Source: Alphaproteobacteria bacterium (GTDB lineage: Bacteria; Pseudomonadota; Alphaproteobacteria; SHVZ01). Taken from it: DNA of 64,000 nucleotides. Every line of letters starts with the position of its first letter. Position 1 is the stretch's first letter. Where the stretch lies: NCBI GenBank assembly GCA_041906305.1, contig JAYRJL010000004.1, positions 264,334 to 328,333 on the forward strand, written 5' to 3'. The notes under the pieces were generated by a model. The model had not been told where the DNA came from and made no database searches. It saw only the letters and a list, made by a program, of their open reading frames with translations. Below, piece after piece: positions 12,925-16,684 of the stretch. The translations under genes and the position numbers were made by a program.

Positions 12925-13860
12925 ATGTTTCCGCTTCTCGAAATCGTCCTGCCGATCTTCGCCGTCGTCCTCGTCGGCTGGCTGGTCGGCCGCTTCGACA
13001 TCATCAAGGCCGAGCGGGTCAACGGGCTCGCCGACTTCACCTTCTTCATCGCGATCCCGGCGCTGATGTTCCGCTCGGTGGTCCGCAACATCCGCTGGGA
13101 GACCGCCGATCCCGGCGTGCTGATCGCCTATTTCGGCTCCGGCCTCGTGATCTACGCGATCGCTCTCCTCATCGGTCTCCGCGTCTTCAAGATCACGTTC
13201 GAGGAAGCGGCGGTGCTGGGGCTCGCCTGCACCTTCGGCAATTCGGTCCAGCTCGGGATTCCCATGGTGGTCCGCACCTTCGGCGAGCACGGGCTCGTGC
13301 CGCTGATGCTGATCATCAGCTTCCACTCGCTCGTGCTGATCGGGCTCACCACGGTGCTGATCGAGATCGCGCGCGGGCGCGGCGGCGGCGCCAGGGTGGC
13401 GGCGATCCAGTCGGCGAAGGGCGCCGCCAGGAATCCGATCATCATCGCGATGGTCGCCGGCCTGGCGACTGCCGGCTTCGACGTCGAGCTGCCGAAGATG
13501 GTGGACGACTTCCTGGGCCTGCTGGGCGCCGCCGGCATTCCATGCGCGCTGTTCGCGCTCGGTGCCCAGATCTCCCGGTTCAGGTTCGGCGGCTCGCTCG
13601 GTCCCACCGTGGCGATCCTCGTCCTGAAGCTGGCGGCGCTGCCGGCGATCGTCTGGCTCTTCGGGATCTGGCTTGGTCTTTCCGGCGAGACGGCGGCGGT
13701 GGCGATCCTCGCTTCCGGCCTTCCCACCGGCGCCAACGTCTTCATCCTCGCCAACCGATATCTCGTTTACCAGGCGCCGGTGGTGTCCTCTGTCGTCGCC
13801 TCGACCGCGCTCTCGCTCGTCACGATCACGCTGCTGATCGCCTGGCTGGCGCCGGTCTAG
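12925..13860 (+). CDS. AEC (auxin efflux carrier) family transporter
   Basis: 311-aa, 10-TMS hydrophobic protein with the two-halves AEC architecture. Confidence 0.85.
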   Translation: MFPLLEIVLPIFAVVLVGWLVGRFDIIKAERVNGLADFTFFIAIPALMFRSVVRNIRWETADPGVLIAYFGSGLVIYAIALLIGLRVFKITFEEAAVLGLACTFGNSVQLGIPMVVRTFGEHGLVPLMLIISFHSLVLIGLTTVLIEIARGRGGGARVAAIQSAKGAARNPIIIAMVAGLATAGFDVELPKMVDDFLGLLGAAGIPCALFALGAQISRFRFGGSLGPTVAILVLKLAALPAIVWLFGIWLGLSGETAAVAILASGLPTGANVFILANRYLVYQAPVVSSVVASTALSLVTITLLIAWLAPV

Positions 13861-16517
13861 AAGGCGAAGCGGGAAATCGGGACCTCCCGGCCCGAGGGCA
13901 GGACCAGCGTGGCGGTCCGGAAACCTGTCGCGCGGAGCGTGACGCCGCCGCGCTCCGCCAGCAGCCGCGGTCCCCCAGCGCCGAAAGCGTATTCCTGCAA
14001 GGTCCCCTGGAAGAGCCCTCTCGCGTAGGTCCCGCTCGCGACGTACCAGGCGGAACTGCCGTCGTCTCGATAGAGATGCGTGGACATGAGCAGCACCCCG
14101 TTCCGGATCTCGATGAAGTAGCCGGATCCCGGCTCGGCCGCGTTCCACCACCAGCCCGTCTCGGGCTCCAGCAATTCTTCATAGGCGCCCGTGACGTCGA
14201 GCCGCGCATGGAGTCGTGCCGTTCGCGGATCGACAACCGGGACACCCGACGAGGCGATCGCCCTCTCCAGGGACGCGACGTGCGTCGGCCCGGCGGTCTT
14301 GAGAGCCGCGATCGCCCCGGCGACGTGCGGCGCCGCCATCGACGTGCCGCGCAAGGCCTCGAAGCCGCCGCCGGGCATCGAGGAGACGATGCCGTCGCCC
14401 GGGGCCACGATCATCGGCAGGCGCCACGCGTTCGAGAAGGCGGCGAGCACATCGAGAGCGGTGGTTGCGCCGACGCGGATCGCGCTGGAAACGCAGGCCG
14501 GCACGGCGACGGCGTTGGTTTGCTTCCCATTGCCGGCGGCGACGACCGACGCCACGCCGATTGCCCGAAGCTGATCGAAGATCGGCTTGTACGGCGTGTC
14601 GTCGCAGTAGCCCGCGTAGGCGTCGCCGCCGAGGCTCAGGTTGACGGCGACGACGTTGAGCCGCTGCGCGTTGTCGCGGACGTATTCGAGACCCCTGATG
14701 ATGTCGGAGTCGGTCGCGCCGATGCAGGGGCCGAGGCAATAGAGCATGGGGTAGTGCCGGAAGACCTGAACGCTCATCAGGCTCGCTTCGGGAGCGACGC
14801 CCGAGAAAGCCTCGCCCCTTCCAGCGACGATGCCCGCGACATGCGTACCGTGATAGCAGGTGGCCTCCGCATCGGCGCAGGGTCTGCCGGCGCCGCGGCC
14901 GAACATCGCGTCGGCGCCGTTCGGGCAGGCCGTCATGATTCCGTGGCTGCGGATCGAGGTGCTGAAGCACGCCTCATCGATCACGCGCCCGCCGAGAAAG
15001 GGATGCGTCGCGTCGATGCCCGTATCCAGCACCGCGACGGTCTGGCCTGCGCCCGTATGTCCCCTGGACCAGACATAGGGCGCCCGTATCCTCGGAACGG
15101 AAGCCGCAAGTAAGGTGGACCGTCTGGCATCCTCATGCACTGCCGCGACCGAGGGATCGGCGAGAAGCGCCTCGAGCCCGGCCGGCGTGACGTCGGCGAC
15201 GACCAGCGGGAGACTTCCGAAGGCGGACACGATCGCGCTTCCCGCTGCGGAGAGCGACGAAGCAAGCCGACCACCGTCCGATGCGGTTCCGTGGAGCCTG
15301 ACGATGACCCGCTGGCTTCCTTTCGACAGGACGAGATCCTTGAGCTCCCTCAACCTGACCGCTTCGGCCTTGATGGGGGCGGGCAGGGTGCCGGGGTCGT
15401 CGGAAGATGCGCTGCCACCGACTGGGTATCGCTCGATGGCAAGAGTTTTCCCACCGGACCGCGCCAGCGTGCCGCGAGCCGACGACGCGAAGGCGAGGGA
15501 GATCGTTCCGGCGGAATCGCGTTCGGCGGGCGGCTTCGAGCCGCCTGCATATTCCGTCAGGGTCGTCGTGAGACCGAAGCCGTCCCAGGAGCCGGACCCC
15601 AGGTACCAGACGGCGCTGCCGTCGGCGCGATAGTCGTAGGCGGCGATCATCAGCCGGTCGTCGCGGAGTTCGATCGAATAGGCGCGGCCGGGCTCGCTCG
15701 GCGCCCACCACCAGCCGCTTTCCGGATCGGCGGACGGCGGCATGAATCGCGCCGTGCAGGCGACATCTCCGCCGATGACGATCCTCGCCTCTGCCGTGCG
15801 ACCGCTCGCGCTGCAGGCGCCGCCCCATCCGGCGAAGACCCATCCGGTTCCAGGGACTGCGCGCAGCGGCACCGACGCGTCCTGGTAGACCTCGATCGTG
15901 CACGTGCCGGAGGCGCAGCGCGGGCCATTGCGGCCCAAGATGACCTCGCCGGCGCCGATGCCCGCGAGCGTCATGGTCAGGCGGCGCTTGATCAGCACCG
16001 GTTCGTGAGCCGGCACCTGGACCGTCCGGGGCGTCAGCTGCAGCTGGCCATGAGTGAGGCTGAAGGCGCCGTTCGGATCGAAGCCGGACTGGAATGCGCC
16101 GAAGTCGAAGGCGACCGTCACCGGCTCATGGACGTTGCCGCAGATCCGGCTGCCGGCGGCATCGACGACCTGCTCGACGATGTAGACCCTGTTGTTCTGG
16201 CGGACAGCCCAGCCGCCGCAGACGCGGGCGCCGATAGTCTTCGTCGGGATCATCCGTATCATGAGCACCGAGCGGCTGGGATCTTCGGCGCACGGCACGC
16301 GCCAGAGAACCGCATCGGATTCGGAGGGGGAGAGGCTCTGTTCGGAAAACCTGGCTGACGGGGCCGGGGGCGGCGCCGGAAATCGCTCGGGCAGACAGCC
16401 GGCAAGGTAAGCCGATGCGTTCGGAAGGCTCGGTTCGGCCCACGCGCCCGCGGGAACCAACTTCGCCAGGGTCAGGGCGATCGCCGCCAGCCAAACCGAC
16501 CGGAATCCAGGGCGCAT
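13857..16517 (-). CDS. secreted S8 family serine peptidase (subtilase) with InlB-B-repeat-like N-domain and two flanking 'GWWW' repeat domains
   Basis: Signal peptide MRPGFRSVWLAAIALTLAKLVPAGAWA (ATG 16517; the track start at 16577 is TTG). Catalytic triad motifs VLDTGID, HGTHVAG, GTSMAAPHVAG. Two ~100-aa repeats ESGWWWAPSEPGRAYSIE... (nt ~15414-15725) and ETGWWWNAAEPGSGYFIE... (nt 13860-14168). Confidence 0.85.
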   Translation of the reverse strand: MRPGFRSVWLAAIALTLAKLVPAGAWAEPSLPNASAYLAGCLPERFPAPPPAPSARFSEQSLSPSESDAVLWRVPCAEDPSRSVLMIRMIPTKTIGARVCGGWAVRQNNRVYIVEQVVDAAGSRICGNVHEPVTVAFDFGAFQSGFDPNGAFSLTHGQLQLTPRTVQVPAHEPVLIKRRLTMTLAGIGAGEVILGRNGPRCASGTCTIEVYQDASVPLRAVPGTGWVFAGWGGACSASGRTAEARIVIGGDVACTARFMPPSADPESGWWWAPSEPGRAYSIELRDDRLMIAAYDYRADGSAVWYLGSGSWDGFGLTTTLTEYAGGSKPPAERDSAGTISLAFASSARGTLARSGGKTLAIERYPVGGSASSDDPGTLPAPIKAEAVRLRELKDLVLSKGSQRVIVRLHGTASDGGRLASSLSAAGSAIVSAFGSLPLVVADVTPAGLEALLADPSVAAVHEDARRSTLLAASVPRIRAPYVWSRGHTGAGQTVAVLDTGIDATHPFLGGRVIDEACFSTSIRSHGIMTACPNGADAMFGRGAGRPCADAEATCYHGTHVAGIVAGRGEAFSGVAPEASLMSVQVFRHYPMLYCLGPCIGATDSDIIRGLEYVRDNAQRLNVVAVNLSLGGDAYAGYCDDTPYKPIFDQLRAIGVASVVAAGNGKQTNAVAVPACVSSAIRVGATTALDVLAAFSNAWRLPMIVAPGDGIVSSMPGGGFEALRGTSMAAPHVAGAIAALKTAGPTHVASLERAIASSGVPVVDPRTARLHARLDVTGAYEELLEPETGWWWNAAEPGSGYFIEIRNGVLLMSTHLYRDDGSSAWYVASGTYARGLFQGTLQEYAFGAGGPRLLAERGGVTLRATGFRTATLVLPSGREVPISRFAF

Positions 16518-16684
16518 GATGAGGACCGGATGATGAGAGAGATTCGGAACAATAAGAGAACAAACGCAACCTTTCAAATAATGATACGACTATCATACTA
16601 TTTTCCTGTGGGATGCGGGCTGGCTCGCCTTGACTCCCCCGGTCGCCGTGCCATGACTCCGGCCCTTTTCAAGCGGGGATCTGC

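Follow-up and report, generated by a model that had tools for sequence, protein, structure and literature searches.

The multi-domain subtilases of family S8 follow a common plan, in which a Sec signal, a subtilisin-type propeptide and a catalytic domain with the D-H-S triad and an oxyanion Asn are combined with beta-rich accessory domains. Here we describe a protein of this kind from an Alphaproteobacteria bacterium (GenBank assembly GCA_041906305.1, contig JAYRJL010000004.1, positions 264,334 to 328,333 of the forward strand); this stretch of 64,000 nucleotides, which was analysed as a whole, is called the window below, and its own numbering is used for all features. The gene lies on the minus strand at 13857..16517, and its product resembles the multi-domain subtilases in the features named above, with the propeptide a putative one. 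In its closest sequence relatives, which are 36-48% identical to it in the S8 part, TIG, fn3, PPC, Calx-beta, CARDB or InlB-B domains are found where the window protein has two copies of a predicted beta-barrel module, M1 (aa 263-366; 15420..15731, minus strand) and M2 (aa 783-886; 13860..14171, minus strand). The module represents a large domain family, unnamed in Pfam and NCBIfam, on exported proteins of Pseudomonadota, and the "sandwich" layout of the window protein is a split version of the common tandem pair of this family, placed on an ordinary subtilase.

An earlier reading of the DNA made from the letters alone (the sequence-only reading) had recognised two homologous modules of about 100 residues, and their similarity proved to be highly significant. 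M1 and M2 align gap-free over 101 residues with 37% identity (pairwise BLASTP E 2e-22), and their Smith-Waterman score was 190 as against 30.2 +/- 5.6 (maximum 62) in 2,000 shuffles, giving z = 28.5, while no other 104-residue segment of the protein scored above 36 with M2. The same reading could place the modules in no named domain, and this also stood. No Pfam family matched either module at E <= 10, no NCBIfam model matched them, and a match of the PKD, PPC or fervidolysin-like kind was looked for and not found. Precomputed annotations from higher Pfam model versions (PF00082.28 as against.27) likewise held nothing over the module, a search of the PDB sequences with the module profile found no significant match (best E 0.08), and the literature searches on the motif and on lipocalin-like domains of subtilases returned nothing relevant. 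No Pfam family was common to all of 74 module proteins, and the canonical proteins that consist of the pair only had no match in NCBIfam or, sub-threshold noise aside, in Pfam at E <= 1.

A word-indexed search with M2 alone recovered only 2 fragments, and an indexed search with a broad module profile recovered short fragments only, all annotated as "hypothetical protein" and with no precomputed Pfam domain. The module is nevertheless far from rare, since an exhaustive search of 1.84 billion cluster representatives with a profile (A1) of 22 module copies retrieved 5,224 proteins at E <= 1e-3, of which 703 reached E <= 1e-30, and two stretches were matched in almost every one. The conserved columns read G-W-W-W...E-x-G-x-G...E...Y..DG..W...G...R-F-x-F and are present in both window copies, which score 93-95 bits. 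In a scan of GTDB with one genome per species, which does not include the genome of the window (best match 64% identical), carriers were found among Alphaproteobacteria from lakes and wastewater known as metagenome-assembled genomes (MAGs), Azospirillaceae, Rhodospirillaceae, Burkholderiales, Usitatibacter, Rhodanobacteraceae, Lysobacterales and Methylococcales, and in the cultured Pseudofulvimonas gallinarii. As the sequence-only reading had thought worth checking, the module is fused to other enzymes elsewhere: its cargo includes peptidases (S8, M23, M12 of the reprolysin/astacin type, and trypsin-like), propellers (BNR, RCC1, Kelch, FG-GAP and NHL), the Vgb lyase and Lcl_C, and some proteins consist of little beyond the barrel pair.

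Among the 148 best representatives, 143 have adjacent copies joined by a linker of 7-15 residues. The pair is found at the extreme C-terminus in 114, of which 105 end in Phe (R-[FY]-x-F-COOH), and in 25 it starts 2-5 residues past the A-x-A cleavage motif of a signal peptide. The tandem pair, comprising a first barrel (B1), this short linker and a second barrel (B2), is the normal state of the family, and it is old and differentiated. In the window protein, by contrast with this norm, the two copies are separated by 418 residues, and such split copies were found in 13 proteins.

The difference between the two positions of the pair provides the main evidence on how the split layout arose. Profiles for position 1 and position 2 were built from 100 tandem proteins and scored on 43 held-out tandem proteins, where the first copy was assigned to the position-1 profile in 43 of 43 and the second copy to the position-2 profile in 42 of 43, with a mean margin of ~23 bits. 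With the same profiles, M1 of the window protein scored 92.9 bits for position 1 and 81.2 for position 2 (+11.7), and M2 scored 95.2 bits for position 2 and 87.9 for position 1 (+7.3). Across the 13 split proteins, whose copies lie 420-460 residues apart, the position-1 profile was preferred by 12 of the M1 copies and the position-2 profile by every M2 copy. Since M1 and M2 prefer the first-copy and the second-copy profile respectively, a domain insertion or rearrangement is indicated and not a duplication within the gene. All 13 split proteins are S8 subtilases, and in a neighbour-joining tree of the catalytic domain they were monophyletic in 56 of 60 bootstraps. By these sequence comparisons, one clade of subtilases, the window protein included, has a propeptide and S8 cassette between B1 and B2. 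The simplest reading is a single event in the ancestor of the clade, by which this cassette came to separate the halves of a pair that already existed. An InlB-B repeat directly before barrel 1, as in the window protein, is also found in canonical tandem proteins (P0258, P0233, P0203 and P0242).

The sequence-only reading had instead seen an internal duplication flanking the protease, that is, a single accessory domain doubled recently in this gene with one copy left on each side of the enzyme. The clear homology of the modules (37% identity, z rounded to 28) is what such a duplication would leave. The similarity between M1 and M2 does not, however, exceed that of either module to copies in unrelated proteins, they fit the profiles of different positions both here and across the split proteins, and the tandem pair is present in thousands of proteins with other cargo. 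We therefore consider this duplication very improbable, and M1 and M2 are better described as the first and the second member of a tandem pair that is old and has differentiated. It was also suggested that the module may be pro-domain-like. Another possibility is that the barrels are helpers specific to the protease, which would assist its folding as additional intramolecular chaperones or keep it latent as inhibitors built into the same chain (latency domains). Beta-barrel protease inhibitors do belong to the calycin/streptavidin-like structural class. Against this, a separate subtilisin-type propeptide appears to be present and the module has many partners that are not proteases, making a protease-specific role distinctly unlikely and giving no support to the pro-domain idea.

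A role in sorting deserves more consideration, although we still regard it as unlikely. The pair might be the recognition tag by which a dedicated pathway exports proteins or attaches them to the surface, comparable to the C-terminal domain (CTD) of the type IX secretion system (T9SS), and might be removed or anchored after transport. Its frequent position at the extreme C-terminus with a final Phe (the 114 and 105 proteins above), the many paralogues per genome with very diverse cargo, and a distribution limited to lineages within Pseudomonadota are all in keeping with such a tag, and the terminal Phe is reminiscent of the aromatic signature at the C-terminus of outer-membrane proteins. The 25 pairs that directly follow a signal peptide, together with others that are internal or, in 13 proteins, split, do not suit a C-terminal signal. 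Furthermore, since R-F-x-F also closes the internal first copy, this ending can be understood as the structural last strand, and the terminal Phe motif is probably just the last strand of the barrel. The modules matched no sorting-domain model of NCBIfam or Pfam (the T9SS CTD and PEP-CTERM types were among those tested). Nor was a recurrent partner gene found in 80 flanked loci, where the recurrent clusters were spurious antisense open reading frames (ORFs) of high-GC DNA or ordinary orthologue synteny, such as fabD and an AEC-family transporter beside the split subtilase and a peptide ABC transporter beside one family of small pair proteins. Least probable of all is that each module is a membrane-embedded eight-stranded barrel serving as an outer-membrane anchor. 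While an eight-stranded barrel is indeed predicted, at ~104 residues and with end strands of 4-7 residues it is too short to span the membrane, charged residues are found on both faces of the strands, the best structural matches are soluble barrels, and the tandem, N-terminal and split layouts do not fit membrane insertion.

The window protein is best explained as a Sec-exported pro-subtilase that carries a split pair of accessory barrels, and we consider this explanation, taken as a whole with the role proposed for the pair, reasonably probable. By analogy, the most likely role of the pair is that of a non-catalytic unit for binding or targeting, which would bind a ligand or surface and so target or retain the exported enzyme, and it would fill the slot that PPC, TIG, fn3, CARDB or P-domains occupy in sister subtilases. 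Maturation would proceed by the usual autocleavage at the junction between the propeptide and the mature enzyme. Because M1 lies upstream of the propeptide, this cleavage would free the entire N-terminal half of the protein unless B1 and B2 re-associate, and on normal autoprocessing the orphan N-terminal domain and the InlB-B repeat would detach together with M1. That the pair forms a structural unit is suggested by the long-standing differentiation of its copies and by linkers that vary little in length. If B1 and B2 re-associated, as they are presumed to do in the tandem proteins, the pair would become a non-covalent clasp that might hold the propeptide as well as the N-terminal domains on the mature enzyme.

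Several points weigh against this picture. The sister group of the split clade was recovered in only 6-10 of 60 bootstraps, and either direction of the rearrangement, with the cassette inserted into the pair or with B1 moved upstream, would be compatible with the tree. The list of 148 was drawn with a profile that had members of the split family among its sources, such that the architecture proportions of the list hold for the top list and not for all 5,224 representatives. The putative propeptide had no match to the Pfam family Inhibitor_I9 even at E <= 10. The binding or targeting role is drawn from architecture and analogy, and the multi-domain AlphaFold2 (AF2) model (predicted template modelling score, pTM, of 0.67, with a disordered linker between M1 and the propeptide) neither supports nor excludes docking of B1 to B2.

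Two more specific versions of the binding role can be envisaged, and that one or the other of them applies is a long shot. In the one, the pair would be a clasp, a self-associating and heterodimer-like unit in the subtilase clade, with B1 on the N-terminal fragment staying docked to B2 on the mature enzyme after autocleavage; if true, such a clasp would be an undescribed form of control over subtilase latency or targeting. In the other, the pair would be the recognition module of a surface-retention system common to thousands of exported proteins of freshwater and soil Pseudomonadota. In both window barrels, ~6 residues are missing from the conserved GGQxxGGxWR loop that connects strands 5 and 6, and they are the same ones in each copy. 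This loop is intact in both copies of most orthologues and is shortened only in M2 of two of them (P0004 and P0006). From this parallel loss, the two loops might work together.

The order of domains in the window protein is signal peptide, orphan N-terminal domain, InlB-B repeat, barrel 1, flexible linker, subtilisin-type propeptide, S8 domain and barrel 2, and it is shared by nine full-length orthologues (45-56% identity). A protein identical to the window subtilase (P0003) is recorded in NCBI and Logan assemblies. All domain coordinates that follow are on the minus strand. The predicted Sec signal peptide (aa 1-27; 16437..16517) was read from the sequence as MRPGFRSVWLAAIALTLAKLVPAGAWA followed by EP, with cleavage expected after AWA, and a hydrophobic N-terminus of the same kind is found in 107 of 129 complete module-bearing proteins. 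It is followed by a region with conserved cysteines and no family assignment (aa 28-198; 15924..16436), where a Pfam scan gave no match; phmmer with this region matched P0003-P0012 only, meaning that these N-terminal ~170 residues have no relatives beyond the orthologues. C41 and C126 are invariant here in the orthologue alignment. The sequence-only reading had called the N-terminal region Cys-rich, and while a few conserved cysteines are there, in even numbers, "rich" was an overstatement. The conserved cysteines of the orthologues are even in number, and the protein thus fits an extracytoplasmic location.

Next comes an InlB B-repeat-like domain of the Flg_new_2 type (PF18998; aa ~199-259; 15741..15923) with four invariant cysteines. 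Such a segment had been suspected, and the suspicion was confirmed when aa 178-265 were scanned alone (26.3 bits, E 7.2e-6, above the gathering score of 23.6); in the scan of the whole protein, the same model reached 21.6 bits and was under this cutoff. The orthologues bear precomputed PF18998 annotations. M1, of the first-copy type, then follows with a module hidden Markov model (HMM) i-E of 5.6e-50 and eight strands in the AF2 model (predicted local distance difference test, pLDDT, ~77-92). The flexible linker (aa 367-381; 15375..15419) has a pLDDT below 50 at model residues 108-121 and differs in both length and sequence between orthologues.

The putative propeptide (aa ~382-468; 15114..15374) was delimited by secondary structure, pLDDT and homology. 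In the AF2 model of aa 261-886 (mean pLDDT 89.5, pTM 0.67), the disordered linker (aa 368-381) is followed by an extra helix and then by a beta-alpha-beta-beta-alpha-beta arrangement upstream of the catalytic domain, and a low-confidence stretch at aa 465-468 (RRST) marks the junction between the two. Residues ~415-488 are homologous to the pre-catalytic segment of related subtilases, where this segment sits near the N-terminus. The best Foldseek matches, over 402-558 aligned columns, were the unautoprocessed pro-subtilisins 3whi, 3afg and 2e1p, the matched structures being pro-subtilisin E, ProN-Tk-SP and pro-Tk-subtilisin. Judged by the model and by homology, a conventional subtilisin-type propeptide probably lies between M1 and the catalytic domain.

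The catalytic domain (aa ~469-782; 14172..15113) matches Peptidase_S8 (PF00082) at aa 489-745 (E 4.6e-32, 111.9 bits as against a cutoff of 21.8). D498 (VLDTGID), H556 (HGTHVAG), the oxyanion N663 (AAGNG) and S726 (GTSMAAP) are invariant in the nine orthologues, as are the paired cysteines of the domain, which lie between D and H. Together with the Sec signal, this bears out the earlier description of a secreted S8 subtilase with a complete triad. The motifs quoted in that description are all present, with VLDTGID at aa 496, HGTHVAG at 556, GTSMAAP at 724, GTGWVFAGWGG at 223, ACTARF at 253 and GWWW at 268 and 788. The S8 part superimposes well on subtilisins BPN' and Carlsberg (target-normalised TM-score, TMt, 0.84-0.87). 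M2, of the second-copy type (module HMM i-E 6.9e-53), forms the C-terminus of the protein and ends in ...SRFAF.

According to the ORF list and translation, the coding sequence of the multi-domain pro-subtilase (13857..16517, minus strand, stop codon included) gives 886 residues from an ATG start. An alternative TTG start lies 20 codons upstream and would give a product of 906 residues. A sigma-70-like promoter match, TTGAAA-17-TATTGT (16549..16577, minus strand), was found ~30 nucleotides upstream of the ATG by consensus match only, with 1 such site found as against 0.2 expected. Since this promoter-like site (16577-16549) falls inside the extension that the TTG start would add, the ATG at 16517 is favoured.

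The protease gene is convergent with a gene for an AEC-family (Mem_trans) transporter (12925-13860, plus strand), and the 3' ends of the two share 4 nucleotides; the same convergent layout is seen in the genome of P0004 (L002) and on a Logan contig (L001). On its other side, the divergent neighbours are the housekeeping fatty-acid synthesis genes fabD-fabG-acpP-fabF, followed by a YceG/MltG-like gene (16685-~21050, plus strand). The position of the subtilase between fabD-fabG-acpP-fabF and the AEC-family transporter is found in the window and in several related MAGs, with split architecture and synteny conserved together across several alphaproteobacterial MAGs, and the fab-cluster neighbourhood is kept in at least six of them (L004-L007, L023 and L083). 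From this conserved neighbourhood, the subtilase gene is a stable chromosomal gene and not part of an island. Throughout the window the G+C content stays at 65-70%, no island of different composition surrounds the protease gene, and no Rfam family reached its gathering score anywhere in the 64 kb.

Other arrangements of the module were also observed. Single genomes often have many module loci, and adjacent paralogues occur; in several genomes, two neighbouring module genes in head-to-tail orientation (L010, L012, L013, L027, L031 and L033) form local paralogue arrays of cargo and barrel pair. Some proteins have four barrel copies, among them one of 1006 residues with four in a row at the C-terminus (P0127) and one of 988 residues in which one pair follows the signal peptide and the other forms the C-terminus (P0131). 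In gammaproteobacterial genomes, those of Lysobacterales and Rhodanobacteraceae included, the profile detected one barrel only, at the N-terminus and with 130-540 further residues after it (L061-L065, L068, L070, L071, L074, L078 and L080-L082). At these loci, either a divergent second copy was missed by the profile or there is a single-barrel sub-family.

These findings do not overturn current understanding; the protein has an ordinary catalytic apparatus, and the fold of its barrels is well known. The interest of the findings lies in a family of at least 5,000 clusters at 50% identity, without a Pfam or NCBIfam model, that marks exported enzymes and propellers of environmentally abundant Pseudomonadota. 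With a name for this family and knowledge of its ligand, thousands of secreted proteins now listed as "hypothetical" could be better annotated. The split layout is a clean natural case of a whole pro-enzyme cassette between the halves of a paired domain, and the presence of accessory domains upstream of a cleavable propeptide raises the question of a coupling between subtilase maturation and targeting.

In terms of fold, the module is predicted to be a soluble eight-stranded up-and-down beta-barrel of ~105 residues, of the avidin/lipocalin (calycin-like) type, and not the beta-sandwich that the sequence-only reading had guessed. The AF2 model of M2 (pLDDT 93.8, pTM 0.82) has eight up-and-down strands. 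In the list of structural matches, the Aeromonas immune modulator A (AimA) scored highest (10.6), followed by designed soluble barrels (10.1 and 9.6), the barrel domains of a D-aminopeptidase (9.5) and avidins (8-9), with lipocalins lower. With Foldseek, the best matches were lipocalins and nitrophorins (query-normalised TM-score, TMq, 0.63-0.64; E 1.9e-3 to 4e-2; 10-13% identity), and nothing was found at E <= 1e-3. In sequence the family of the module is new, while its barrel belongs to the familiar calycin/streptavidin-like class.

The eight-stranded antiparallel meander barrel that defines avidin and streptavidin is seen in the module, and its first-strand motif resembles the first strand of avidin. 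The likeness is nevertheless one of barrel type, with binding of biotin by the module unsupported: a comparison by hhalign of the module family (A4) with avidin and streptavidin (A6), for which the reference sequences were verified against the PDB, gave a probability of 0.4% (E 0.17), by which homology was rejected, and the Pfam Avidin model matched neither the modules nor the pair-only proteins. The lipocalins, including nitrophorins and biogenic-amine-binding proteins, share the meander-barrel topology of the module at the level of fold only. Lipocalins have ~160-190 residues and a C-terminal helix, whereas the module has 104 residues, is helix-free in the model and is matched by no lipocalin model of Pfam. 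AimA (PDB 6b7l; PMC6219842), which is lipocalin-like, has 11% identity to the module with no likeness at the profile level, and is a stand-alone effector, whereas the module is an accessory part of enzymes.

Further comparisons are with enzymes that carry accessory barrels or other beta-rich domains. In the D-aminopeptidase DAP of Ochrobactrum anthropi (PDB 1ei5), the middle and C-terminal domains are barrels with 15% identity to the module and no Pfam cross-match; its catalytic domain has the beta-lactamase fold and is not of the S8 type, and its barrels are contiguous rather than split around the enzyme. From the multi-domain S8 subtilases, the window protein differs in that its accessory domains belong to an unnamed barrel family and that their two copies flank the pro-enzyme. 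While the equivalent propeptide segment is found near the N-terminus in the related subtilases examined, in the window protein one barrel, an InlB-B repeat and an orphan domain are all placed upstream of it.

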